This document shows positions 352 to 63,768 of a stretch of DNA of 64,000 bases, one piece after another. Made by a program: the position numbers and the translations under genes. Location: contig CAZZFP010000002.1 in assembly GCA_964653575.1 (NCBI GenBank), positions 63,303 through 127,302 of the forward strand. Direction: 5' to 3'. How positions within the stretch are numbered: position 1 is the stretch's first letter; the number at the start of each line of letters is the position of its first letter. The DNA comes from an uncultured Lachnospiraceae bacterium (GTDB lineage Bacteria > Bacillota > Clostridia > Oscillospirales > CAG-272). A model generated the notes under the pieces. That model was not told the origin of the DNA. It worked only from the letters and a program-made list of their open reading frames with translations, and did no database searches.

Positions 352-376
352 TCCTCTTGCTTTAACAGATGAAAAT

Positions 377-417
377 AACGCCACACGGGCCCGTCTAAGG
401 TCAGCGTGGCGTTTTTT
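377..417. terminator. Hairpin (AACGCCAC...GTGGCGTT) followed by TTTTTT, lying between convergent genes
   Basis: 8-bp GC-rich stem at 377-384/406-413 with a T-run at 411-417. The A-rich upstream flank allows function in both directions. Confidence 0.6.
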
Positions 418-431
418 GAGTATTTTTTATT

Positions 432-1145
432 TCATACTCCGTATTTTATTTTTATCCTTTGAAGCTTATCTCCAAACGGCTTTGAAAGATAAAACAGAAA
501 CAAAAAATTCGATATTGAATAGAGTATGGTATGAGGCAATGCCGTTACTATTGCCGAGAGATACAGAGCTGTGTCAAATCCATCATTATACCACAGTACC
601 GTCCATACGTCCATTATCAATGAGAAGGCGACTCCCGAAATGACACCGAAAATCAGCAAAAATATCTTGCTTTTTTTCAGTGGCTTTGCAAGTGCTCCCG
701 CGGCAAGCCCGATCAGTCCCCACGCAAGCATTTGAAACGGAGTCCACGGACCTTGACTGAAATAAAAATTCGATATAAGTGCCGAAAAAGCACCGACGGC
801 AAATCCCGCCTCGCCACCGAGATATATAGCGGTTATCACGGTCAGCGCCGTTACCGGTTTAAAAAACGGTATAAACCGTCCGACGACAGATAATGCTGTC
901 ATAATCGAAACTATAACGGTCCTTCGCGTGCCGATTTCTTTCTTTTCAAACCCGATTACAAACAGGATGATCGTAAGAATAGCTATAAAGAGCGACACAA
1001 AGAGATGCTTTTTTTCGTCGAAAACGAGCGTGCCCATAACCGCCGCTGTCGGTATTATCACAAACGGTAAAAGTATTTTTAGGGCTTTTCGAACACCGCG
1101 GCTCTTAATTACCGTCATCGCCGTTACCGCCTCGCTTTCTCGCAC
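432..1145 (-). CDS. ECF transporter substrate-specific (S) component-like integral membrane protein, last gene of the B12-riboswitch operon
   Basis: Multi-TM 237-aa ORF immediately downstream of the ECF A-A' and T genes and overlapping the ATPase stop. An alternative start is at 1118 (MTVIKSRG). Substrate cannot be assigned from sequence alone. Confidence 0.65.
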   Translation of the reverse strand: MRESEAVTAMTVIKSRGVRKALKILLPFVIIPTAAVMGTLVFDEKKHLFVSLFIAILTIILFVIGFEKKEIGTRRTVIVSIMTALSVVGRFIPFFKPVTALTVITAIYLGGEAGFAVGAFSALISNFYFSQGPWTPFQMLAWGLIGLAAGALAKPLKKSKIFLLIFGVISGVAFSLIMDVWTVLWYNDGFDTALYLSAIVTALPHTILYSISNFLFLFYLSKPFGDKLQRIKIKYGV

Positions 1146-2748
1146 CGTTTTCTTTGCAAAGCTGTGCTATATCCTCCACCGTTATCGCGTTTTCAAAGTA
1201 TCCCTTTGCAATACGCGCCGCGGATGTGGTGTAGAAACAGTTCTCCGAGAAGAATTCATGCGGAGTACCGCAAGAAACAATATTGCCGCGGAAAAAAAGC
1301 GCGCATCTGTCGGCGCAAGCCGCGGCAAATTCCACATCGTGAGTAACCGCGAGTACCGTCACGCCGTCGGCTTTCAGCTTTCTGAGTATGTCGATAAGGA
1401 TTCTCTTTTTTTCGGCATCGAGTCCCTTGGTTGGCTCGTCCAAGAGCAACAATCGAGGATTCGTTGCAAGTACCTTGGCAAGCGCAAGAAGCTGCTGCTC
1501 TCCGCCCGAAAGATCGTAAGGATGTTTCTCGAACAAATGCGAAAGCTCGAAGGGAAGTGAGCTTGCGTCCACGTGTGCGTCTTCAAGCTCCTCTCGTACG
1601 GAGTTGCAAAGAAACACATTCTGCACATCCTGCGGAAGTAGTGCAAGACAATTTCGATACAGCGACTGTCCCGGGTATTCCTTCTGCCGCTTTCCAAATA
1701 CGCGTATCTGACCGCCGTATATTTTTCTTATGCCGCAGGCGCAGGAAAGTGCCGTAGTTTTGCCTGAGCCGTTTCCGCCGAGGATGCAGAATATCTCGCC
1801 GGCGTATATTGTAAGATCCAATCCCTTTAGCACATCCGGTGCATTTTTTTCGTAACGAAAATATGCTTTTTTGAATTCAAGCGCCGTGCTCTCGCTGTGA
1901 ACGTAGGGAGAGATCGAGAGACTCGTGATATGATTGGAATATTCCGTCTCGATAAATCGTCTGCCATCGCCCACCGTCAGCGGACATTCGGCGCCTGACC
2001 CGAGCAGGCGATACAGTCTTGCCGCTGTCGGCATAGAAGCAAGGAGCGGACAGTCGTCCGACAGCTCCGAGATAACATTCCGAGGCTTTCCGTCGCCGAT
2101 GAGAGTCCCTTTGTCCATCACGAGCAGTCGGTCGCACATGGGTATAAGCTTCTCAAGACGATGCTCGGCGATGATAACGGTCAGCGAAAGATCGCGGTTG
2201 AGCTTTTTTACCGTATTTAGAAAGTCCGAGGTTGCGATGGGGTCGAGCTGTGACGTCGGTTCGTCGAGAATAAGGATATCGGGATCCATCACCATAACCG
2301 AGGCAAGATTTAAAAGCTGTTTCTGACCGCCGGAGAGCGTTGAAACGTCGCGCTCGAACCAGCCTTCGATACCGAAGTAGGATGCCATCTCTGCCACTCT
2401 GCGTGCTATAACGTTTTGAGGCAATCCGAGGTTTTCGAGTCCGAAGGCAAGCTCCGAATATACACGGTCGGTCACTATTTGCTCATCGGGACGCTGCGAG
2501 ACGAATCCTATCCGCTCGGCGGGTATCTCATTTATCGGTCTTCCGCCGAAAAGTATTTCGCCTTTTTCGCTTCCGCGTGGCGCGATCTCTCGCTTCAAAA
2601 GTCTCAGGAGCGTGGATTTCCCGCCGCCCGTTGCACCGCATAAAACGATAAAATCTCCCGATGCGACTGAAAAAGAAACATTACAAACTGCGGCTCTTTC
2701 GCACACGGGATATGTGAATGTCAGATCTTTGACTGTAAGTATTTCCAT
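1105..2748 (-). CDS. ECF/ABC transporter fused double ATPase (EcfA-EcfA')
   Basis: Two Walker A motifs (GATGGGKST, GGNGSGKTT), two LSGGQ-type signatures (LSGGQKQ, LSGGEQQ) and two Walker B motifs (ILILDEPT, LLLLDEPT). Confidence 0.9.
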   Translation of the reverse strand: MEILTVKDLTFTYPVCERAAVCNVSFSVASGDFIVLCGATGGGKSTLLRLLKREIAPRGSEKGEILFGGRPINEIPAERIGFVSQRPDEQIVTDRVYSELAFGLENLGLPQNVIARRVAEMASYFGIEGWFERDVSTLSGGQKQLLNLASVMVMDPDILILDEPTSQLDPIATSDFLNTVKKLNRDLSLTVIIAEHRLEKLIPMCDRLLVMDKGTLIGDGKPRNVISELSDDCPLLASMPTAARLYRLLGSGAECPLTVGDGRRFIETEYSNHITSLSISPYVHSESTALEFKKAYFRYEKNAPDVLKGLDLTIYAGEIFCILGGNGSGKTTALSCACGIRKIYGGQIRVFGKRQKEYPGQSLYRNCLALLPQDVQNVFLCNSVREELEDAHVDASSLPFELSHLFEKHPYDLSGGEQQLLALAKVLATNPRLLLLDEPTKGLDAEKKRILIDILRKLKADGVTVLAVTHDVEFAAACADRCALFFRGNIVSCGTPHEFFSENCFYTTSAARIAKGYFENAITVEDIAQLCKENGARKRGGNGDDGN

Positions 2749-3599
2749 TTTAGTCTTTCCTCCGTTTCTGTAATAGTGGGGAGTATTGCGAGGATCCCGT
2801 ACGCTGCGTATGCCGCTGTGGAGAGAGGCGTCGGATCGGCAGACAAAATAATTGGATAGAAGGTGAAATCAAGTGCGCCGAGTGCCATTCCGATGAGAGT
2901 CAGTGTCGTACACGAGAGAATGATGCCGAGCATTATTACGTCGCAAAGGCAAAATCCGAATATCGAATAATATGTTCTTTTATGCTTTCCGTATGCACGA
3001 GCCGACATACTGTCGGCGGTCGTGATACCGTTTTCGAGTGCCCACGTGATAAGAATGGAAAACACACGAAGGTCGCTTTTTATTTTATCAATCACATTTT
3101 CATCCTTGTAGAGTCCAATGGCTCTCTGGCTTTCGGATATGAGACGAGCTCTTTCTTTGAAGAGAGCTACGTATCTGAGTGACATTGAAAGAACGAGAGC
3201 AAGCCTTGGGGAGAGCTTTCCGAATACATAAAGAAGCTTGTCCCGTGTCATAATACTGCTGAACGAACGAAACAGATACAGAACCGTTACGATGATCCCC
3301 GCATTGACGACACCGTATACAGTCGCCTCAAGCGTTATTGGGGAGTTGTTGATAACGAACAATACCGTTTTCCCGTTGTGATAGGTGAGCGGATTTATTA
3401 CGCTTAAAATCGCAAACAAAGCAATGTAAAACAGATGCGAGAGAAATGAGTTTTCCTTGTTACGTAACAAAAAATATGTCAATGCTCCGATAGCTCCGAT
3501 GAGAAGAAGCACGGGATTTTGCGAGAACATCAGTATTAGCATCATTGCAAGAAAATATATCGTTATGACAATAGGATTGCAATCTTCGAGACGTCGCAT
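2721..3599 (-). CDS. ECF transporter transmembrane T component (EcfT/CbiQ family)
   Basis: 292-aa polytopic membrane protein directly upstream of, and overlapping, the ECF ATPase gene. Length and topology are typical of CbiQ/EcfT. Confidence 0.85.
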   Translation of the reverse strand: MRRLEDCNPIVITIYFLAMMLILMFSQNPVLLLIGAIGALTYFLLRNKENSFLSHLFYIALFAILSVINPLTYHNGKTVLFVINNSPITLEATVYGVVNAGIIVTVLYLFRSFSSIMTRDKLLYVFGKLSPRLALVLSMSLRYVALFKERARLISESQRAIGLYKDENVIDKIKSDLRVFSILITWALENGITTADSMSARAYGKHKRTYYSIFGFCLCDVIMLGIILSCTTLTLIGMALGALDFTFYPIILSADPTPLSTAAYAAYGILAILPTITETEERLKWKYLQSKI

Positions 3600-3635
3600 A
3601 TCCTTCTCCTTTCCTCTTTTTCGTAATTCAGCCTA

Positions 3636-5354
3636 TCATTTCAGATCTTCTCCGAGCGCGCAGGTGTAGAGCCATTCTATTTTGTCGCCGTCTTTGAGAA
3701 TATATTGCCCCGCGCCGACGGACGGACATTCTCCGTTTACGTAGTACATCCATCCGGAAAGGTCTCCGTATTCGGTCTCGTAAATGTAAGCGATACCCGA
3801 AATGTATACGTACGTTGCATCTCCGTCATTTTCAAGCTGTATTTTGTAGGTGCGTGCGGCTTCTGTCAGGACAGTGTATACCGTGTCGCCGTCGGCAATA
3901 TCAAATTCGGTGATATCAAGTATTATTCCGTCATCCGGAATATGATCGGCGCGTCCCGCAACGGTGTCGCATCTGATAGTTAGTGTTACCGTGCCGGTGG
4001 TGTTTTCCTTTGACACACTGTCACCGTTGTAATATTCATCGGCCGAGCGTATCTCTGTTGAGCAAACGATCAAAAGCGAGACAGACACGACGATCAGAAC
4101 GGCAATAAAATTCTTTATATTTCGTTTTTTCAATGCAAACAGAAGGACGCATACGGCACCGCCAATACAAACGATGATAAGACAGGCTAAGGGCTTGTAT
4201 CCGCCCGACGAGTTATCGCTGTCGGTTGTAGTCGGTGCGCTTTCGGATCCTTGCGAGGGGGAAGATGTATCCGTTTCGGGTAAAGGATCCTTTTCGGTGT
4301 CAGAGGGGGAGCTTGTATCGGTGTTGAGATCGAAGCTCGGCTCGGTTTCCGGGGTGCTCTCCGATCCAAAGCTCGTATCGATATCGGTGCCGTTAAACGA
4401 CATCGAATCAAGCATATAAAGGGAAGGCTTGCCGCTCGTCATACGCAGATATGATACTGCGGCGCACAATACCTGAACCGTGGCAGTTCCGTCGGAGTTG
4501 CCGCCTACGTTGTGGCAAAAGCTTCCGTCCGGAAGTCTGTATTTGGCTATTCCGTCAAAAAGCGTGTTGCCGTTTTTGATAAACCTCTCATCATTTGCCG
4601 CGTCGATGCCGAGCGACGACAGCGCTATAACTACCTGCGCTGTACTTTCCGGATTTGCCGAGCCGTAGCTTGCGAAGTCACCGTCGTCAAGCTGACGCTC
4701 CGACAAAAGGCTCAGTGCGCAGTCTATTGCAGATCTGATGTCGCTGTCGGAAGAATAAAAGGGTGCAAGTGCCTGTATCGCCATGGCGGTGGCATCAACG
4801 TCACCGTACTGACCCATGACCGTCCAGCCCCCGTCACTTGTTCGCAGATCAAGAAGCTTTGCCTTAACTTGTTCCGCCGTATATTTTCCACCGCTGTAAC
4901 CATTGTTCAAAATGTGCAGACCGAATATCCAGCTCATCAGTCCTTGCTCTCCGACGGAATCTTCCAGCGCTGTCGAGATATAAACGTCGTCGCTGCCGGA
5001 GGCGGCAAGGCAGAGCGCATATTTCAGCCTTGACGACGCAGAATGTACCGTATTGCTTTTGAGATAGGAAAGAAGTGCCGACCTGTACGATGAAAGATCG
5101 TATTTTTGGTATTGCGAGAGGGCAATAATGTACCACTCTGCGGACGTGCCCGCACTTTGGGTCAGGTATCCGTCTATCCACGATTGGACCTTGTCCGATC
5201 CCGATATGCCTTGATAAGCCAAGATACCGTCGATAAGGCTTTGTGCCTCAACGACGGTATTTTTCGTTGACTTTTCTGCGTGGCACGGTATCGCTCCGAG
5301 CAACAATGCGGCAATAACTAACAGTATTGCCGCCGCGGAAAATTTAGATCTCAT
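3636..5354 (-). CDS. Secreted/membrane-tethered protein: prenyltransferase-like alpha/alpha-barrel domain + Ser/Thr/Pro/Asp linker + two-TM hairpin + C-terminal DUF4430 domain (transcobalamin-like domain pair)
   Basis: Signal peptide MRSKFSAAAILLVIAALLLGAIPCHA. Repeated SDGGW/LDDGDF/LPDGSF barrel repeats. TM hairpin at aa 386-432. C-terminus reads GDLSGWMYYVNGECPSVGAGQYILKDGDKIEWLY, typical of DUF4430. Confidence 0.8.
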   Translation of the reverse strand: MRSKFSAAAILLVIAALLLGAIPCHAEKSTKNTVVEAQSLIDGILAYQGISGSDKVQSWIDGYLTQSAGTSAEWYIIALSQYQKYDLSSYRSALLSYLKSNTVHSASSRLKYALCLAASGSDDVYISTALEDSVGEQGLMSWIFGLHILNNGYSGGKYTAEQVKAKLLDLRTSDGGWTVMGQYGDVDATAMAIQALAPFYSSDSDIRSAIDCALSLLSERQLDDGDFASYGSANPESTAQVVIALSSLGIDAANDERFIKNGNTLFDGIAKYRLPDGSFCHNVGGNSDGTATVQVLCAAVSYLRMTSGKPSLYMLDSMSFNGTDIDTSFGSESTPETEPSFDLNTDTSSPSDTEKDPLPETDTSSPSQGSESAPTTTDSDNSSGGYKPLACLIIVCIGGAVCVLLFALKKRNIKNFIAVLIVVSVSLLIVCSTEIRSADEYYNGDSVSKENTTGTVTLTIRCDTVAGRADHIPDDGIILDITEFDIADGDTVYTVLTEAARTYKIQLENDGDATYVYISGIAYIYETEYGDLSGWMYYVNGECPSVGAGQYILKDGDKIEWLYTCALGEDLK

Positions 5355-6156
5355 AACGCTTTTTTGCCGTTAAAGCGAGAGCGAGTACTCCGCAAAGTGA
5401 CGCTGCAAAAAGAACGATGTAAACGAGCGAGTTGTCACCCGTCAAGGGATTTTCGACAACCTTTACTGTAACTGCGGGGGGGACAAGTGTTTGAGTTGCG
5501 CTTGTGGCACTGATAACGAAAGAACCTACGTTATCAATTTTTACCGTGACCTTGCCGTCCTCGCCTGTTTTAAATTCCGTTGCAACACCGTTGACGGTGA
5601 TGACGGCATCCTTTACGGGAACTGTTATGGGATTGGAATCCTTGTCAAATTTTGCCGCGTTAAGTATGAGAGTGAGCTCGCCGTTCTTTCCGACTTGTGC
5701 CGTGTTGACGTCAAAGTAGCAATATGTGTCGCTGTAGCCCGAAAGGTCTGTATATACGAAGGCGTTGATAAAGTCACCGTCTTTTATTGCGTCGGTAAGT
5801 CCGGATGCCGAAAGGTTATTGACATAATAGCCGTATGAGCCGCCGTTCTCTACTCCCCAGAGCTTTGTGAGAGAAAGTCCCCACGTTGAGAGCGCGGATC
5901 CGTATCCTGCCGATGCGCCGCCCTCAAACTTTGCTTCGTGAGCACAGTACAGAGCATCGTTTAACGTCAACTTGGAATCATCGTCGATGTCTGTTACGGT
6001 TATCTTTTCCTGCGTAAGTACGAGCTTTCCGTTGTCATCCGCAATGGTTACGTAAACGTCTGCGGATAAGGAAGCGCCGCTTTCTGCGAATACGCCGAGT
6101 GCCAAAGTGCTCAAAAGCACTAAGATTGCCAATGTGATAGATAAGATCTTTTTCAT
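5344..6156 (-). CDS. Cell-wall-anchored DUF4430-like protein with Ig-like domain and sortase-type sorting signal
   Basis: Signal peptide. YGYYVNN...IKDGDFINAFVY matches the DUF4430 pattern. A beta-rich Ig-like segment follows. The C-terminus has NPLTG, then a hydrophobic helix, then a KKRYEI tail. Confidence 0.75.
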   Translation of the reverse strand: MKKILSITLAILVLLSTLALGVFAESGASLSADVYVTIADDNGKLVLTQEKITVTDIDDDSKLTLNDALYCAHEAKFEGGASAGYGSALSTWGLSLTKLWGVENGGSYGYYVNNLSASGLTDAIKDGDFINAFVYTDLSGYSDTYCYFDVNTAQVGKNGELTLILNAAKFDKDSNPITVPVKDAVITVNGVATEFKTGEDGKVTVKIDNVGSFVISATSATQTLVPPAVTVKVVENPLTGDNSLVYIVLFAASLCGVLALALTAKKRYEI

Positions 6157-6245
6157 TTTTATACCTCTTTGTTTTGATTATATTTTTTGATCCGCTTTCG
6201 CCGATCAAATATTCGACTTTGATTTTGATAATGTATGATGCTTGC

Positions 6246-6548
6246 TCAATCCTGTTCGCTGTCCGCCTTGGGTTTTGTTTGTGCTTCGGCGCTTTTGCGT
6301 GCGGTAAGACGTGCACGCTTGGCTCTCACTCTCTTTTCTCTGTTTCTTTGGAGGCGATCATCGTTTCTCGGCGGCTTTATGCCGGCGGCTTCGAGCGCAC
6401 GCGGCCAAGGCCCGAGAAAAGCTTTTATTGCCACGACTTCAGCCTCGTCGAAATCGGATCTTTGAGGATAACGAGCTTTTTCGAGTTCGCTGTATTTGAT
6501 ACATAGAAGGCGAATGCACTCCTCTTTACTGTACTTTTTTTGATCCAT
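6246..6548 (-). CDS. Small basic protein (100 aa), single homing-endonuclease-associated-repeat-like motif plus Arg/Lys-rich tail; first ORF after the cobalamin riboswitch
   Basis: Strong RBS (GGAGGTG, 6 nt before the ATG). The motif YSKEECI...FLGPWPRALEAAGI resembles the HNH-associated repeat (tentative, by eye). Confidence 0.6.
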   Translation of the reverse strand: MDQKKYSKEECIRLLCIKYSELEKARYPQRSDFDEAEVVAIKAFLGPWPRALEAAGIKPPRNDDRLQRNREKRVRAKRARLTARKSAEAQTKPKADSEQD

Positions 6549-6564
6549 ACGACACCTCCGAAAT

Positions 6565-6830
6565 ACAAAAAACGCTTTTCTACCTCAAACGGTAAAAAAG
6601 CGCAGCTATCCTATCGGTCGAAAAATGGGCACACTTCACCCATATACCAACGAAAACGGCTACGCTCTTCAAGTCCAAAAACGATTGTGCGAAACGCACA
6701 CTACCTGTCGCGGTTTTGGCGAGTATTCCGACTTATGAGATCTGTGTCTCAATTACGGTAATGACGGTTGCGACGGATTTTCACCGAACTTCCCTCTGAT
6801 CTGCGGAAAGCAGAGCCAAACTGCGAAAAA
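6565..6830 (-). promoter_or_regulatory. Cobalamin (B12) riboswitch
   Basis: Minus strand carries CAGAGGGAAGTTCGGTGAAAATCCG (plus coordinates 6775-6800). A B12-box-like AGTCGGAATACTCGCC sits at plus coordinates 6718-6733. A terminator hairpin lies downstream. Confidence 0.8.
6572..6604 (-). terminator. Riboswitch expression-platform intrinsic terminator
   Basis: Minus strand reads GCGCTTTTTTACC-GTTTGA-GGTAGAAAAGCGT followed by TTTTTTG, just upstream of the RBS of ORF 6246-6548. Confidence 0.7.
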
Positions 6831-6891
6831 TATTTAATTTTTATTTATGCTATGCGGAAACAGCAAAGCAAACTTATATCATCGAGACAGT

Positions 6892-6920
6892 ATTATATCA
6901 CCTTTTTATCAGATTGTCAA
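6892..6920 (-). promoter_or_regulatory. Consensus sigma-A promoter for the riboswitch operon
   Basis: Minus strand reads TTGACA-17 nt-TATAAT (TGTCAA at 6915-6920, ATTATA at 6892-6897 on the plus strand). Confidence 0.6.
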
Positions 6921-7032: not shown

Positions 7033-7254
7033 ATGCAATTCGACCGTGAAGCGATAGATAAGCTGCTTTCACTCAATGATTTTCAACTTAAAATAGTGGT
7101 AACAAGACTTCTTAAGGAAAACGGCATAGACCCGTCAATGCTAAACATCGACACTAAAAATATGGCGACACTAAGAAGGACGCTTCAAAATGCAACGGAG
7201 GCAGATATTGAAAGAGCCGCGCAGCTGTTTTCGAGGTTCAAAGGAGGACAGTAA
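7033..7254 (+). CDS. Hypothetical small protein (73 aa)
   Basis: RBS AAAGGAGG precedes the ATG. No recognisable family. Confidence 0.5.
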   Translation: MQFDREAIDKLLSLNDFQLKIVVTRLLKENGIDPSMLNIDTKNMATLRRTLQNATEADIERAAQLFSRFKGGQ

Positions 7255-7290
7255 AAGTTACGATCTAATGTGAAAGGGGGAGAATATACA

Positions 7291-7893
7291 GTGGCACAGG
7301 GAGAAAACAAAGGCGGATCCGACAACGGCAATTCTGCCTTGAGCAAACTTTTGGGCGACCCCGAGGCGCTCAGATCGATCGCCGCGCTTGCGGGCGCTTT
7401 TGGTAAGAGTACGGGCGGAGAGAACGATGCCGCAGGCGCTCAAAACGCGCCGTATGGAGGCGGGGAAAACAAAGGATTTAAAATTCCCGACGGATTATTT
7501 GATGACTTGCCGGAAGGACCGCAAGAAGCTGAAGGTATCGATGTCGAACATAATAACCAAAACGCTGATGATGCCGGTAACGCAGACGCTACCCGTTCGG
7601 AGGCTGAAGCGGCATCGGTCGGCGGAGACATTCTCGGATCTTTGATATCTTCGGAAATGCTTTTGAAGCTTCCCGAGGTGATCGCGGCAGCGGGACCATT
7701 GATGCAGTCATTCGGACGATTGCGGGAGGATGGCGCGAAAGGTGGAAAGACGTTTCGGCGCGGGCGTGTTCCCGCGGAAAAAAGATGTGCCTTGCTCGCG
7801 GCGATGAAGCCGTATCTCAGCGAGCATAGATGCAATACTGTGGATATGATGATAAACCTCAGCAAATTCTCATCGATTTTTGAACGCAAATAA
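7291..7893 (+). CDS. Hypothetical acidic/Gly-rich protein with conserved-looking C-terminus (KRCALLAAMKPYLSEHR)
   Basis: The ORF opens at 7270 (GTG). The GTG at 7291 has the better RBS (AAAGGGGGAG, 8 nt upstream). Confidence 0.5.
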   Translation: MAQGENKGGSDNGNSALSKLLGDPEALRSIAALAGAFGKSTGGENDAAGAQNAPYGGGENKGFKIPDGLFDDLPEGPQEAEGIDVEHNNQNADDAGNADATRSEAEAASVGGDILGSLISSEMLLKLPEVIAAAGPLMQSFGRLREDGAKGGKTFRRGRVPAEKRCALLAAMKPYLSEHRCNTVDMMINLSKFSSIFERK

Positions 7894-7912
7894 GCCGAGA
7901 AAGGAAAATATT

Positions 7913-8341
7913 ATGTATTCACGAATAGGACGCCGAGACATCCCACAAACGGATCGTAGCATAAATATTCCCGAAAATTACAGCGGCTCTGCATTTAACG
8001 GCGGACTTCTTGGAGACCTTTCCGAGAAGCTTCCGGAGGATGTATCCGTAACGGCGAGCACGGATATGTCAGCTAATGTGACCGAACACGCAAGCTTCGA
8101 CGAGGTGGAAAACGGCACCGATCCGAGCGGGGCTGTGTGCGAGCGTGATTCGAACGCAGATGCTTATGACGGCGATCTCGTGTCTTGCTCCTTGCCCGGT
8201 CATATGGCGGTCGGTACAAAAGAGTCGCGCATACTGCCGTTTGATAACGACCAACTGCTGATACTCGGATTGATACTTTTACTTAACAACGGAACGTTTG
8301 ACGAGGATATACTCGTGCTGCTTATACTACTGCTTTTGTGA
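7913..8341 (+). CDS. Hypothetical protein with PENYSGSAF motif and Leu-rich C-terminal tail
   Basis: RBS GAAAGGAAA precedes the ATG at 7913 (MYSRIGRRD). The hydrophobic tail LLILGLILLLNN...LVLLILLLL is followed by a terminator. Confidence 0.55.
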   Translation: MYSRIGRRDIPQTDRSINIPENYSGSAFNGGLLGDLSEKLPEDVSVTASTDMSANVTEHASFDEVENGTDPSGAVCERDSNADAYDGDLVSCSLPGHMAVGTKESRILPFDNDQLLILGLILLLNNGTFDEDILVLLILLLL

Positions 8342-8394: not shown

Positions 8395-8465
8395 TCAGCC
8401 TCTGTGATAAAATCATATTTGAAGAATACATAATGCCAAAGTCAAAAAGAAAGGAATTGAAAAGT

Positions 8466-8798
8466 ATGATAAAAAAGACGGGTGGCTTTGAAAAGAGCCT
8501 TGAAAATGATAGCCTTGTGATAAAAATACGGGGCGAAATAGACCATCACAGCGCGGTTGACATACGCGGAGATATAGATCGGTTGATATACGAGACCTCT
8601 CCGCGCAGGCTCGTGATGGATCTTTCGGTGGTGGATTTTATGGACAGCTCCGGGCTGGGGCTCATTATGGGAAGGTATTCGGTTATGTCGGGGCTCGGCG
8701 GCGAAACGGTACTGCGCGATCCAGCGCCGTCAATACTTAAGATTATCAAGCTTGCGGGGCTTGAGAGAATGATAAAAATCGAGAAAAGCAAGAAATAA
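8466..8798 (+). CDS. spoIIAA: Anti-sigma F factor antagonist SpoIIAA (STAS domain)
   Basis: STAS pattern (DLSVVDFMDSSGLGLIMG) and position upstream of spoIIAB-sigF. The ORF opens at 8433, but the ATG at 8466 has an RBS. Confidence 0.85.
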   Translation: MIKKTGGFEKSLENDSLVIKIRGEIDHHSAVDIRGDIDRLIYETSPRRLVMDLSVVDFMDSSGLGLIMGRYSVMSGLGGETVLRDPAPSILKIIKLAGLERMIKIEKSKK

Positions 8799-8825
8799 GC
8801 CGAGCAACAGAAAGGAAGGCAAAAT

Positions 8826-9302
8826 ATGAAAAAAAACACTGTAAAAAAAGATATGACCGTGCTTAACAGAGTAAAGCTCGTTATTCCATCGCTGTCCGTA
8901 AATGAAGGCTTTGCCCGTGCGGCAGTGGCGGCATTCTGCGCGCAGATAAATCCTTGCGCCGCCGAGCTTGCGGATATAAAATGTGCGGTTTCCGAGGCGG
9001 TTACAAACTGTATCGTTCACGCATATAAAAATACCCCGGAAGGAATGGGGAATATCACACTGACCGTAAAGCTTTGTGCCGACAGAGTGGTTATCGTCGA
9101 GATAAAGGACAGCGGTTGCGGAATACCCGACGTAAAAATGGCGAGGACTCCGCTATTTACCACAGACGCGGCGGATGAGCGGAGCGGAATGGGATTTACG
9201 GTTATGGAAAGCTTTATGGACAGGCTTAGAGTAAGCTCGAAGGTGGGACGCGGGACTAAGGTCACTATGTACAAGTACCTCAAGGATCAGGAGAGCCTCT
9301 GA
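8826..9302 (+). CDS. spoIIAB: Anti-sigma F factor SpoIIAB (serine protein kinase)
   Basis: HATPase_c motifs (AVSEAVTNCIVHAY, DSGCGI, GMGFTVM). Gene order is spoIIAA-AB-sigF. Confidence 0.9.
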   Translation: MKKNTVKKDMTVLNRVKLVIPSLSVNEGFARAAVAAFCAQINPCAAELADIKCAVSEAVTNCIVHAYKNTPEGMGNITLTVKLCADRVVIVEIKDSGCGIPDVKMARTPLFTTDAADERSGMGFTVMESFMDRLRVSSKVGRGTKVTMYKYLKDQESL

Positions 9303-9337
9303 ATACATAACAAGATCCTTATCAGGGAGGGGAAAAC

Positions 9338-10195
9338 GTGAGCTATTGTGAAAATGAAGTACACGGTCTCGGAGAATATCAAAACGGTGGCGCTTGCAAA
9401 GAGACGGAGGAGAGCGGGGAGGTGAAGGAGACCTCTGCCGCGGATATCGGCAAAATGCGGGATGCAAGTCCGCTTTACGCTAAGAATACCGAGCTCGTAA
9501 GACGCGCCGCCGAGGGGGATGAAAAAGCGCTTGAGGAGCTGGTGCTTTCAAATATGGGGCTTGTACGAAGCATCGCGCGTAAGTTTATCGATCGTGGCAC
9601 GGACTACGAAGATCTTGTTCAAATAGGCATTATGGGAATGCTCAAAGCGGCGGAAAGCTTTGATATTACCAGAGGGACGGTATTTTCGACCTACGCGGTA
9701 CCTCTCATTGTGGGGGAGATACGAAGACATTTGCGCGACGACGGTATGATAAAGGTCAGCAGGCAATATAAGCGGCTCGGAATGGCGCTCAGTCGTGAAC
9801 GGCATCGTATACTGACCGAAGAAGGACGCGAGCCGCGCATAGAAGAGCTTGCGGCGCTTTGCGGTTCGACCCCGGAAGAATGCGCTATGGCACTTGAAGC
9901 TATATCTCCCGTTTCTTCTTTTTCGGACACGGTGGGAGGAGACGAGAGTATGACGCTTGAAAGCACACTCGCCGATGCCGACAGCGAGGCGGAAATCGAG
10001 CGTATAAACGACCGCCTTGCGCTTAATCAGGCTATATCCAAGATGCAACCGACGTGGAGAAAGATCGTGCTTTTGCGCTATTACAGAGGAAAAACTCAGC
10101 AGGAAACCGCGGATCTGCTCGGACTTTCTCAGGTCAAAGTATCAAGAGAAGAAAAGAAGATCATGGAGTTTCTTCGAGGGGAGCTTGTGGTATAA
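9338..10195 (+). CDS. sigF: RNA polymerase sporulation sigma factor SigF
   Basis: Sigma-70 regions 2-4 (DLVQIGIMGMLKAAESFD, QQETADLLGLSQVKVSREEKK). GTG start with RBS GGGAGGGG. Confidence 0.9.
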   Translation: MSYCENEVHGLGEYQNGGACKETEESGEVKETSAADIGKMRDASPLYAKNTELVRRAAEGDEKALEELVLSNMGLVRSIARKFIDRGTDYEDLVQIGIMGMLKAAESFDITRGTVFSTYAVPLIVGEIRRHLRDDGMIKVSRQYKRLGMALSRERHRILTEEGREPRIEELAALCGSTPEECAMALEAISPVSSFSDTVGGDESMTLESTLADADSEAEIERINDRLALNQAISKMQPTWRKIVLLRYYRGKTQQETADLLGLSQVKVSREEKKIMEFLRGELVV

Positions 10196-13869: not shown

Positions 13870-14160
13870 ATGGATCTGCTTGAAAACGAAGGGTACCGCT
13901 TGGTACTCAAAGCGCTTGTTGCGGCAAAGACCGAGGAGGAGTGTCACGCACTGCTTGACGATCTTATGACTCGAAAGGAAATATTGGATATCGCACAGAG
14001 AATGCTTGTGGCGAAGCTTTTATCTGAGCAGACCGTTTATACAAAAATAGTCGAGGAAACGGGAGCAAGTACGGCGACGATAAGCCGTGTAAACCGTTGT
14101 TATCTTTACGGCTCGGGTGGCTACAAAACCGCGCTTGAACATATTAAGGATTACGATTAA
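13870..14160 (+). CDS. TrpR-like YerC/YecD family protein
   Basis: The ~96-aa length and TGASTATISRVNRCYLYGSGGY are characteristic of YerC/YecD. Confidence 0.85.
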   Translation: MDLLENEGYRLVLKALVAAKTEEECHALLDDLMTRKEILDIAQRMLVAKLLSEQTVYTKIVEETGASTATISRVNRCYLYGSGGYKTALEHIKDYD

Positions 14161-14251
14161 AGGTTAAAACTCCGCGATAACAAAAATGACCGAGACACGG
14201 CAAAAAGGCTTTGCCGTATCATATTTTCGGTGTACAGATGTTTCAAATAAT

Positions 14252-14298
14252 AAAACGATCCCAATCCGAGACAGTAAAGTCGGGCGGGGATCGTTTTG
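14252..14298. terminator. Bidirectional terminator hairpin between yerC-like gene and sulfatase
   Basis: AAAACGATCCC...GGGGATCGTTTT with A/T runs on both flanks. Confidence 0.6.
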
Positions 14299-36294: not shown

Positions 36295-38700
36295 ATGTAT
36301 CGTGTTATCAAAAGAGACGGAAATGTTGTGGAATTCGATTTAGTAAAGATCAAGGTCGCCATTACGCAGGCATTCGACGCGGTCGAAAAGAACTATACCC
36401 CGGAGGTTATAGATCTACTTGCACTCAGAGTTACGGCGGATTTTCAATCTAAAATAAAGGACGGACTTATTTCCGTTGAAGATATACAGGACAGTGTTGA
36501 GGTCGTGCTTATTCAGGCGGGATATGCCGACGTGGCAAAGGCATATATCCTCTATCGCAGGCAGCGCGAGCGTGTCCGTGAAATGAAGTCTACCATTCTC
36601 GATTACAGCGAAGTGGTCAACAGCTACGTAAAGGTCACGGATTGGCGTGTAAAAGAGAACAGCACAGTTACATATTCTGTCGGAGGTCTTATCCTTTCAA
36701 ACTCTGGTGCGATCACGGCTAACTATTGGCTCTCCGAGATCTACGACGATGAGATCGAGAAGGCACACAGAAATGCCGATATACACATACACGACCTTTC
36801 TATGCTTACGGGCTATTGTGCGGGTTGGTCGTTGCGTCAGCTTATCGTTGAAGGACTTGGCGGTATCCCGGGCAAGATATCTTCATCGCCCGCATCGCAC
36901 CTTTCAACGCTCTGCAACCAGATGGTGAACTTCCTCGGCATTATGCAGAATGAGTGGGCGGGTGCACAGGCGTTCTCTTCGTTTGATACTTATCTTGCGC
37001 CCTTTGTAAAGGCGGACAACCTCTCATATAAAGAGGTAAAGCAGTGTATTCAATCCTTTATATACGGCGTAAATACACCGAGCAGATGGGGAACACAGGC
37101 TCCGTTTACCAATATAACTCTTGATTGGACGGTTCCCGCGGACCTTGCAAACCTTCCCGCAATCGTCGGCGGCAAGCCCCAGGACTTCACCTACGGTGAT
37201 TGCGTTGAAGAGATGGCTATGGTAAACAAGGCATTTATTGAGATAATGATCGAGGGCGATGCTAACGGCAGAGGCTTCCAATATCCGATACCCACATATT
37301 CCATCACGAGAGATTTTGATTGGTCCGAGACTGAGAACAACAAGCTTCTCTTTGAAATGACCGCAAAATACGGTACGCCTTATTTTTCCAACTACATAAA
37401 CAGTGATATGGAGCCGAGCGACGTCCGCAGTATGTGTTGCAGACTGCGTCTTGACCTTCGTGAGCTTCGAAAGAAATCCGGCGGTTTCTTCGGAAGTGGC
37501 GAGAGCACGGGCTCGATCGGTGTCGTGACTCTCAATATGCCTCGTATCGCATACCTTTCCGAGAATGAAGAGGATTTCTATCACCGCCTTACACATCTTA
37601 TGGATATTTCCGCTCGTTCACTTAAGATCAAGCGTGATATCGTTACAAAGCTTCTCAACGAAGGACTTTATCCTTACACAAAGCGTTATCTCGGTACTTT
37701 TGAAAATCATTTCTCTACGATAGGTCTTGTCGGTATGAACGAGGCTTGCCTTAACGCAAAATGGATAAAGAAAGATCTTACAGACGAAAAGGCTCAAAAA
37801 TTTACAAAAGATGTTCTTAACTATATGAGAGAACGTCTTAAGGTATATCAGCAGGAATACGAGGCGCTCTTCAACCTCGAGGCAACTCCGGCAGAATCCA
37901 CGACTTACCGTTTTGCAAAGCACGATAAGAAAAGATATCCCGACATAATCACGGCAAGCGAAGGTAAGAACGGCGCACCTTATTATACCAACAGCTCGCA
38001 CCTTCCCGTTGACTTTACGGATGATATATTTGCGGCACTTGACATTCAGGACGAGCTTCAAACTCTCTATACATCGGGAACCGTATTCCACGCATTCCTC
38101 GGACAGAAGCTCCCGGATTGGAGATCGGCGGCAAATCTTGTTCGCAAAATAGCCGAAAATTACAAGCTGCCTTATTATACGCTTTCTCCTACTTATACTG
38201 TCTGCGGATACCACGGATACATAGCGGGCGAACACTTTACCTGTCCCAAGTGCGGCAAACCCGCAGAGGTATACAGCCGTATCACGGGCTATTATCGCCC
38301 GGTTCAGAATTGGAACGACGGCAAGCGTGAAGAATTTAACGAGAGACGCGTTTATAACGTTACGGATAATGTCAATACTCCGTGTGAAGACTCTGCAAAG
38401 AAAGAGACTTGCACCTGTTGTAAAGAAGAAAAGACGATCGCGAGCGCAACGTTAGGCTCTTCTGCCCGCCTTGTGCTTGTTACGGCAACCAAGTGCCCCA
38501 ACTGCGCTATGGCAAAGAGGTTTCTTGATTCAAAGGGACTTGCTTATGACGTTGTCAACGGAAGCGAGGACGCGGAATTTGCAGACAAATTTGAGATAAA
38601 ACAAGCGCCGACGCTTCTCGTGTTTGACGAAAACGGAGCGCTTTCGGGTAAATATGTAAATCTTTCCAACGTGAGAAAATTTATTGAGGAGCAAGCGTGA
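36295..38700 (+). CDS. nrdD: Anaerobic ribonucleoside-triphosphate reductase with ATP-cone and fused C-terminal thioredoxin-fold (CPNC) domain
   Basis: ATP-cone N-terminus; GYCAGWSL; SMCCRLRLD finger loop; Zn ribbon CGYHGY..CPKCG; glycyl radical motif SRITGYY. About 110 extra C-terminal residues follow, with a CxxC Trx-like fold from aa 725. Confidence 0.95.
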   Translation: MYRVIKRDGNVVEFDLVKIKVAITQAFDAVEKNYTPEVIDLLALRVTADFQSKIKDGLISVEDIQDSVEVVLIQAGYADVAKAYILYRRQRERVREMKSTILDYSEVVNSYVKVTDWRVKENSTVTYSVGGLILSNSGAITANYWLSEIYDDEIEKAHRNADIHIHDLSMLTGYCAGWSLRQLIVEGLGGIPGKISSSPASHLSTLCNQMVNFLGIMQNEWAGAQAFSSFDTYLAPFVKADNLSYKEVKQCIQSFIYGVNTPSRWGTQAPFTNITLDWTVPADLANLPAIVGGKPQDFTYGDCVEEMAMVNKAFIEIMIEGDANGRGFQYPIPTYSITRDFDWSETENNKLLFEMTAKYGTPYFSNYINSDMEPSDVRSMCCRLRLDLRELRKKSGGFFGSGESTGSIGVVTLNMPRIAYLSENEEDFYHRLTHLMDISARSLKIKRDIVTKLLNEGLYPYTKRYLGTFENHFSTIGLVGMNEACLNAKWIKKDLTDEKAQKFTKDVLNYMRERLKVYQQEYEALFNLEATPAESTTYRFAKHDKKRYPDIITASEGKNGAPYYTNSSHLPVDFTDDIFAALDIQDELQTLYTSGTVFHAFLGQKLPDWRSAANLVRKIAENYKLPYYTLSPTYTVCGYHGYIAGEHFTCPKCGKPAEVYSRITGYYRPVQNWNDGKREEFNERRVYNVTDNVNTPCEDSAKKETCTCCKEEKTIASATLGSSARLVLVTATKCPNCAMAKRFLDSKGLAYDVVNGSEDAEFADKFEIKQAPTLLVFDENGALSGKYVNLSNVRKFIEEQA

Positions 38701-63674: not shown

Positions 63675-63768
63675 AATTAAAAACTCCTTGCTTTTTCTTT
63701 TCGAATGTATCTGCTATTAATTATATTACATTATTCCGATTATGTCAATAGAATTTTTTGCGGTATTG

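Follow-up and report, generated by a model that had tools for sequence, protein, structure and literature searches.

A probable corrinoid capture-and-import operon, with a predicted transcobalamin-like surface protein and a dedicated ECF module, in an uncultured Lachnospiraceae bacterium

Gram-positive bacteria of the gut and rumen compete for corrinoids, and a 2026 review calls their extracellular corrinoid capture 'entirely uncharacterized'. Here we analyse a 64-kb window, namely 64,000 nucleotides of contig CAZZFP010000002.1 (positions 63,303 to 127,302) from the uncultured Lachnospiraceae bacterium of assembly GCA_964653575.1. Its minus strand carries a promoter, a cobalamin riboswitch, a terminator and then six intact open reading frames (ORFs), whose products include a transcobalamin-like surface protein (p572), a second surface protein (p270) and the components that form an ECF (energy-coupling factor) transporter. 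In our judgement this is probably a vitamin B12-repressed operon for corrinoid capture and import. The proposal of an earlier note, in which surface corrinoid capture feeds a private ECF importer, finds support in the riboswitch, in the predicted fold of p572, in an S component that resembles the B12-specific CbrT and in conserved synteny. The details of any relay among the encoded proteins are held with lower confidence.

The concept of capture coupled to import is not new, since systems of this class had been foreseen in 2007. In a purely computational study, Burroughs, Balaji, Iyer and Aravind drew attention to SLBB proteins of Gram-positive bacteria that resemble transcobalamin and carry signal peptides, wall anchors and alpha/alpha toroids; their operons also hold genes for a CbiO-like ATPase and a CbiQ-like membrane protein and often for a second extracellular paralogue. 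From gene context, and independently of the present analysis, these authors predicted the scavenging of B12 or its precursors, and they proposed a lateral transfer to animals (PMC1796856). Those parts of their paper that deal with these operons make no mention of a riboswitch, of a CbrT-type S component, of a membrane hairpin between toroid and SLBB domain, of an N-terminal domain of the p270 type or of orf100, the small protein encoded first in the operon described here (PMC1796856). The operon in the window is a distinct architectural variant of this predicted class and not a new kind of system. What is new in detail is the membrane hairpin, the unannotated domain of p270, two extra helices of the S component and the small conserved protein linked to the riboswitch.

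The only such operon with genetic data is lsa1836-1840 of Lactobacillus sakei, which was reported to be a heme importer (bioRxiv 10.1101/864751). By the paper's description its five genes encode the same set of components, namely S, A-A' and T together with extracellular proteins that resemble the beta and the alpha part of transcobalamin. L. sakei has these two domains on separate proteins, whereas in the window they share one chain (p572) and p270 is encoded in addition. According to its authors, the L. sakei S component lacks cobalamin-binding residues, and no cobalamin riboswitch was reported (bioRxiv 10.1101/864751). The earlier note had held that no system of this kind was characterised experimentally; this stands for B12, for which we found none in the literature, but it overlooks both the genetic work on heme in L. 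sakei and the prediction of 2007.

Among transporters, the only ECF-type B12 importer to have been characterised is that of Lactobacillus delbrueckii, ECF-CbrT (PDB 6FNP; Santos et al. 2018). According to those authors it had been predicted by Rodionov et al. in 2009, and it transports cobalamin and cobinamide (PMC5997447). It is likewise an ECF-type ABC importer and provides the nearest solved relative of the S component in the window, although the sequence similarity is remote. CbrT is, however, a group II S component on a shared general ECF module, with neither a dedicated operon nor extracytoplasmic partners, whereas the window encodes a private module (fused A-A' and its own T), some 65 extra N-terminal residues in the S component and two co-transcribed surface proteins. 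The animal carriers transcobalamin, intrinsic factor and haptocorrin (2BB5, 3KQ4, 4KKI) share with p572 an alpha6/alpha6 toroid plus a beta-grasp domain, at 12-14% identity. They are soluble and their interdomain linker is short; that of p572 extends over about 120 residues and includes a membrane hairpin. Finally, BtuG, BtuH, BtuJ and BtuK of Bacteroides resemble the system in its proposed logic of riboswitch-controlled surface corrinoid capture feeding a transporter (PMC8941943, PMC13616437). The Bacteroides system differs in its unrelated folds, in anchoring through outer-membrane lipoproteins and in its use of the TonB-dependent BtuB together with BtuFCD, and no Bacteroides capture-protein structure was among the 50 Foldseek matches listed for the p572 or the p270 model.

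The elements of the locus are as follows, in the direction of transcription.

6892..6920, minus strand: sigma-70 promoter TTGACA-17-TATAAT with extended -10 TG; 12/12 positions match (promoter scan)
6701..6834, minus strand: cobalamin riboswitch aptamer, short variant (RF00174 and custom covariance model)
6572..6603, minus strand: intrinsic terminator of the expression platform, with a 13-pair stem, a 6-nt loop and a TTTTTTGTATT tail
6246..6548, minus strand: orf100, 100 amino acids (Pfam HNH_repeat)
5344..6156, minus strand: p270, surface protein with signal peptide, N-domain, beta-sandwich and sorting motif
5707..6075, minus strand: N-domain of p270 (residues 28-150), unannotated, with a DxDxDG loop and an invariant His73
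3636..5354, minus strand: p572, 572 amino acids, transcobalamin-like (DUF4430, 70.3 bits, and a squalene-cyclase-like toroid)
2721..3599, minus strand: EcfT, CbiQ-type transmembrane coupling subunit (Pfam CbiQ, 35.4 bits against a cut-off of 25)
1105..2748, minus strand: fused EcfA-EcfA' ATPase, 547 amino acids (Pfam ABC_tran twice, E 1e-51)
432..1145, minus strand: S component, CbrT-like (Pfam ECF_trnsprt, 42.5 bits, and ECF-ribofla_trS)
366..412, minus strand: putative operon-end terminator, a hairpin (ACGCCACG...CGTGTGGCGT) that has a loop of 16 nt, then TTATTTTC, read by eye

The genes are tightly packed, with overlaps of 11, 28 and 41 nt (28 nt between EcfT and EcfA-A') and gaps of 36 and 89 nt. 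This is the layout that the earlier note had drawn from promoter to S component, and its consensus promoter (6920-6892), its intrinsic terminator (13 pairs and a T-run at 6603-6572) and its three ECF assignments all held up against pattern scans and Pfam. The exact pattern TTGACA-17-TATAAT occurs twice in the window and in none of 100 dinucleotide-preserving shuffles; about 58 nt separate the operon's copy from the aptamer downstream of it, and the other perfect promoter is at 63720-63748 on the minus strand. Downstream of the expression-platform terminator, which lies 100 nt beyond the aptamer, a ribosome-binding site (GGAGG) precedes the ATG of orf100. Terminator and folded aptamer form together in the minimum-free-energy structure. 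At the other end of the operon, the hairpin and T-run just past the stop codon of the S gene probably terminate transcription; the scan missed this candidate because its loop limit was 8 nt.

The cobalamin riboswitch model of Rfam, RF00174 (clan CL00101), matches 6834-6701 on the minus strand over the full model span of 1-189 (32.4 bits against a gathering threshold of 31.5, E 1.8e-4) and is the sole gathering-level Rfam match in the whole window. Both the core GGUGAAAAUCC and the B12 box AGUCGGAAUACUCGCC align with the consensus. In the peripheral P6 region, 61 model positions are replaced by 10 nt, and it is the absence of these roughly 50 nt that accounts for the marginal score. A scan for the p572 family, taking one genome per species, gave at least 509 loci, of which 80 were analysed here. 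They come from members of the Oscillospiraceae, Acutalibacteraceae, Lachnospiraceae and Ruminococcus that live in rumen and gut, among them the cultured R. flavefaciens strains Y1, MA2007 and YL228 (loci L027, L034 and L042); the nearest relative (L001) is an uncultured Lachnospiraceae metagenome-assembled genome at 84% identity. RF00174 was present in 6 of the 14 loci that were run through Rfam, with scores of up to 93 bits (L049, L013).

A custom covariance model (R1), built from a trimmed alignment of six elements of relatives, scores the element of the window at 119.8 bits. Across the window and the 80 loci it yields 76 matches, all on the operon strand and covering 70 of the 80 loci, with the riboswitch lying a median of 174 nt ahead of the first gene. 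Among the 74 distinct sequences, 89% of cells are paired, and both partners have changed in 19 of the 27 pairs; each variable helix of the R1 alignment has compensatory changes. None of 500 shuffles attained the observed pairing and covariation values, and sliding the partners lowered pairing to 28-51%. Since the riboswitch is conserved with covariation across relatives, it is a genuine and conserved feature of this operon type, as the earlier note had claimed on the strength of the window alone. Short (<150 nt) and long (>=150 nt) forms both precede these operons, that of the window being short. One relative (L020) has a further cobalamin riboswitch downstream of its operon, at 14119-14298.

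The genes behind the riboswitch are syntenic across dozens of species. When the six proteins of the window were compared with the 80 loci by tblastn, all five core genes (p270, p572, ecfT, ecfA-A' and S) were found in 61 loci, of which 56 have the riboswitch. The most frequent order is riboswitch-(orf100)-p270-p572-ecfT-ecfAA-S, with the ECF genes coming first in seven loci. In four loci (L057, L069, L075 and L079) the genes of the binder pair are split from those of the transporter, and each half has a cobalamin riboswitch of its own; both halves would therefore be independently under B12 control. Several loci have one riboswitch ahead of the binder genes and another ahead of orf100 plus the ECF genes.

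The candidate for a transcobalamin-like binder is p572. Pfam places DUF4430 (PF14478) at residues 489-564 with 70.3 bits against a gathering cut-off of 23.8, and NCBIfam detects a weak squalene-cyclase similarity at residues 140-262. The AlphaFold model (predicted local distance difference test score, pLDDT, of 81) divides the protein into the following parts.

N-terminus to about 318: signal peptide, then an alpha/alpha toroid at about 30-318 (helices 33-306; AlphaFold model)
319-382: disordered linker, acidic and rich in Ser and Thr (AlphaFold model)
386-434: transmembrane hairpin, with helices 386-407 and 413-432 and a putatively cytoplasmic KKRN loop (AlphaFold model)
445-572: DUF4430/SLBB beta domain (AlphaFold model and Pfam)

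The hydrophobic helices of the hairpin and its basic KKRN loop are kept in 48 of 48 homologues. Applying the positive-inside rule to this loop, toroid and beta domain should both face outward. When the model was searched against the PDB with Foldseek, the 15 best matches were intrinsic factor, transcobalamin (rat, human and bovine) and haptocorrin, with E-values of 8e-8 to 2e-6 and a probability of 1.00, and these alignments span both domains of p572 over 560-586 columns. Later matches were class II terpene cyclases, which cover the toroid only; after these came 5no0, a transcobalamin beta domain on its own (target-normalised TM-score 0.77), and 3u7z. As modelled, p572 thus shows the two-domain fold of an alpha/alpha toroid followed by a beta-grasp SLBB domain, and the alpha-barrel plus DUF4430 assignment of the earlier note is borne out. 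The whole-chain root-mean-square deviation from the animal carriers is 15-18 Å; the modelled domain arrangement therefore differs from that of the crystal structures. On the predicted structure we regard p572 as an architectural and fold analogue of the B12 carriers, and it is probably also a distant homologue. A single-sequence search of the PDB with p572 gave no match, and the profile of the beta domain alone gave only noise there.

The transporter genes have the make-up of a dedicated (group I-like) ECF module, in that EcfT and the pair of ABC ATPase domains are encoded together with an S component, and the fused ATPase matches ECF_ATPase_1 (312 bits) and ECF_ATPase_2 (285 bits) of NCBIfam. 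In a single-sequence phmmer search of the PDB, the S component matched 6fnp_A only (E 1.1e-5). A profile of 25 orthologues reached E 2.2e-15 and 60 bits with the same chain over residues 6-177 of 182, followed by 4hzu_S (1.5e-3) and RibU 3p5n_A (0.012). Chain A of 6fnp was taken as CbrT because of its length and its S-type match. CbrT is hence the closest solved relative by 12 orders of magnitude in E, and by this measure the S component is nearer to CbrT than to the S components of other substrates. Of the outcomes that the earlier note had named as refutations, the two that computation can address, namely the lack of a significant RF00174 match and a clustering of the S component with those of another known substrate, were not observed. 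Residues 1-65 (window 950-1145) form two conserved extra N-terminal hydrophobic helices that have no counterpart in CbrT, and the transmembrane hairpin of p572 might dock with them. The true start of the protein is probably Met10, with the ATG at 1118, rather than the annotated GTG at 1145, because this fits the N-terminus of the family consensus.

The second surface protein, p270, is less readily placed. In its confident AlphaFold model (pLDDT 90) the signal peptide is followed by an alpha/beta N-domain (31-148), a prealbumin- or Ig-like beta-sandwich (152-234) and a C-terminal helix. In the sequence, the motif NPLTGD is followed by the hydrophobic stretch LVYIVLFAASLCGVLALALTA and a KKRYEI tail. 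p270 thus appears to carry a sorting signal (xPxTG, hydrophobic segment and basic tail), although its first residue is not the canonical Leu. An xPxTG motif, mostly (S/A/T)PxTGD, occurs in 25 of 44 relatives, the other 19 having only a transmembrane segment and a basic tail. Pfam matches in the family are CarboxypepD_reg/DUF4198 (37 of 44), Gram_pos_anchor (9 of 44) and EF-hand_1 (6 of 44), the last being due to the conserved DxDxDG loop; PF14478 was matched in none of the 44.

Whether the N-domain is related to DUF4430 was approached in several ways. Sequence searches of p270 against the PDB gave nothing useful. With hhalign, whole alignments of p270 and p572 gave an irrelevant 27-column match, and the probabilities in the first runs were 1-10%, with 1% for trimmed narrow profiles. 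Smith-Waterman scores of p270 were not above those of shuffles, and a hidden Markov model (HMM) of the C-terminal domain of p572 was not significant against p270. With Foldseek, the whole p270 model returned Ig-like matches only among the 50 listed, because its Ig-like domain swamped the results. Profiles of p572 and of its beta domain likewise miss the transcobalamin chains of the PDB; HMM methods are therefore blind at such divergence, and the negatives for p270 carry little weight. When the N-domain profile was broadened (200 domain copies, 125 sequences in the profile), hhalign gave a weak match to DUF4430 (P 0.002), in which GYYVN...GD.I is aligned with the DUF4430 signature GWxYxVNG...DGD.IE. 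When extended, this alignment is colinear with five of five secondary-structure elements in the core of the AlphaFold models of p270 and p572. The N-domain may hence be a very divergent SLBB domain. Of the earlier description of p270 as 'sortase-anchored DUF4430-like', the first half agrees with the sorting motif, while the second finds no Pfam match in the family and is left with this one weak profile match, with which the modelled secondary structure agrees.

In our judgement p270 is a genuine partner of p572. In one protein (P0401) the p270 N-domain, a toroid and DUF4430 are fused in a single chain, which functionally links the N-domain to p572. The N-domain is a mobile module found in 1050 representative clusters. 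Tandem arrays of 2-5 copies are frequent, with a prealbumin-like sandwich behind each copy, and they occur in surface proteins that reach 3720 amino acids and in some cases have dockerins (P0361-P0505).

Taken together, these findings suggest how the operon could work. At low intracellular cobalamin, the empty aptamer would allow transcription to read through the terminator at 6603-6572 into the six genes. Exported p572 would be held in the membrane by its two-helix hairpin, with toroid and SLBB/DUF4430 domain outward, and the two domains could clamp one corrinoid between them, by analogy with transcobalamin and intrinsic factor. p270, translationally coupled to p572, would be displayed on the wall or the membrane through its xPxTG sorting signal and could act as a partner in capture or relay. 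The ligand would then pass to the CbrT-type S component, and the dedicated EcfT/EcfA-A' module would drive its import. The ecology is in keeping with this, as few rumen isolates, about 47 of 501, make B12 de novo (PMC6118326). Like corrinoid binding and hand-off, the 'piracy' of which the earlier note spoke is something we infer rather than read from the locus.

Several observations weigh against reading the operon in this way. The RF00174 score of the window's own riboswitch exceeds the threshold by just 0.9 bits. p572 has no Pfam match to Cobalamin_bind PF01122 (E<=0.1) and no sequence match to any transcobalamin chain; on these sequence grounds it is not filed as a member of the PF01122 family. 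In profile searches p572 matched only squalene-hopene and class II terpene cyclases, with whose repeats its toroid aligns and to which the toroid is nearest in sequence, and the linker of about 120 residues with two transmembrane helices between alpha and beta domains puts their closure on each other in question. In the literature we found no biochemical characterisation for B12, and no binding or transport data, for any member of the class. The 64-kb window is, moreover, too small to judge the B12 biosynthetic status of the organism.

The nearness of the toroid to terpene cyclases also feeds an alternative that we consider unlikely, in which the ECF module imports corrinoids while p270 and p572 stand off the uptake path. 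They would then serve in surface storage or sequestration against competitors, in an enzymatic action of the toroid, or in an adhesive or structural role. The toroid retains DVDxTA as a remnant of the cyclase motif DxDDTA, the p270 N-domain recurs in tandem in very large surface proteins with occasional dockerins, and ECF transporters are normally defined as needing no extracytoplasmic binding proteins (PMC5997447). Yet the family consensus (DVDVTA) no longer has the third Asp of DxDD, the fold of p572 as a whole matches B12 carriers and not enzymes, and the binder genes overlap each other and are in tight linkage with the ECF genes in nearly every case. The narrower idea that the toroid is a terpene cyclase was set aside, given the degenerate DxDD motif, the extracellular location of the protein and an overall fold that matches the B12 carriers.

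We judge it improbable that the operon imports heme or another non-corrin tetrapyrrole, with the riboswitch merely coordinating the tetrapyrrole economy. The case for this comes from L. sakei, where heme uptake suffered when lsa1836-1840 was deleted and recovered on complementation (bioRxiv 10.1101/864751), a result that also counts against corrinoids as the substrate here, and from ECF-type heme uptake as described for S. lugdunensis (PMC7299338). The L. sakei paper, however, reports no riboswitch, and its evidence for heme binding is docking only (bioRxiv 10.1101/864751), whereas in the present family a cobalamin riboswitch stands before the operon in 70 of 80 species, and before each half where the operon is split. 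Of the solved S components, CbrT is also by far the nearest to the one encoded here, and hemin is no competitor for ECF-CbrT (PMC5997447).

The remaining alternative, that the riboswitch is a false positive or a decayed relic in front of an ECF transporter for an unrelated substrate, could draw on the score of 32.4 against 31.5 bits and on the largely missing P6, but it is effectively refuted by the 76 instances with compensatory changes under the custom model, by the 93 bits that relatives L049 and L013 attain on RF00174 itself, and by a promoter and a terminator that flank the aptamer appropriately.

The small protein orf100 is cytoplasmic, with a single HNH_repeat-like helical domain (PF18780, 27.9 bits) and a basic tail rich in Lys and Arg, and it belongs to a conserved family of more than 2340 clusters. 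Its gene is the first behind the riboswitch, and in 34 of 74 cases orf100 follows a cobalamin riboswitch. It also lies directly behind a cobalamin riboswitch in differently organised DUF4430/CbiQ operons, where it has a short riboswitch of its own that is followed by a second one. In such loci (L081-L087) the riboswitch and orf100 (around 6001-6324) are followed by (DUF2284), a second riboswitch, genes for large surface proteins, a toroid protein, a DUF4430 protein, CbiQ and an ABC/S fusion, and the short riboswitch before orf100 scores highly. In L081-L085 the toroid and the DUF4430 domain are on separate proteins, as in L. sakei; a DUF2284 gene follows orf100, and among the very large surface proteins one has a faint dockerin match and another a weak cohesin match in Pfam. 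The ABC/S fusion of L085 joins two ABC cassettes and the S component in 881 amino acids.

It is tempting to speculate beyond this, in a joint reading that we hold only tentatively and that we would not expect to prove right in all its parts. The operon may encode the first ECF transporter with an extracytoplasmic capture complex, in which the p572 hairpin docks on the extra S helices and delivers the corrinoid directly. p270 would add an SLBB-derived corrinoid-binding domain with a Ca2+ loop, reused in tandem in giant surface proteins that in part have dockerins; orf100 would act as a small regulator or chaperone devoted to the B12 regulon; and the family would stand, among living bacteria, as the counterpart of the ancestor from which the animal B12 carriers arose.

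The operon type is very common, being found in more than 500 species-level genomes from Oscillospiraceae, Lachnospiraceae and Ruminococcus. Because cultured R. flavefaciens strains carry the operon, the prediction is directly testable. Should binding and hand-off prove true, it would follow that binding proteins can serve ECF transporters. It could then also be settled whether heme or B12 is the contested substrate in L. sakei, and a Gram-positive bacterial origin of animal transcobalamin and intrinsic factor would gain an experimental footing.

The genes that flank the operon are unrelated housekeeping and sporulation genes, namely those for a Ca2+/Na+ antiporter, spoIIAA/AB-sigF, a cardiolipin synthase, a sulfatase and MurQ. 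A scan of about 20 further ORFs of the window, including those for NrdD, GroEL and a radical SAM enzyme, found no B12 biosynthesis gene and no B12-dependent enzyme. NrdD (36295-38700, plus strand; Pfam E 6e-191) is an anaerobic class III ribonucleotide reductase, which is the B12-independent type. At 8433-10195 on the plus strand, spoIIAA-like and spoIIAB-like ORFs, read by eye, precede SigF (NCBIfam, 244 bits), and from this sporulation cluster it follows that the organism is a spore-forming Firmicute. Divergent from the operon promoter, at 7033-8341 on the plus strand, lie three ORFs of 73, 207 and 153 amino acids that have no NCBIfam match, two of them rich in Gly, Asp, Glu and Asn and of low complexity. 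At the edge of one related locus (L072, 18-231, minus strand) we observed two tandem matches to the Gut-1 RNA (RF01706), scoring 56.6 and 54.3 bits.

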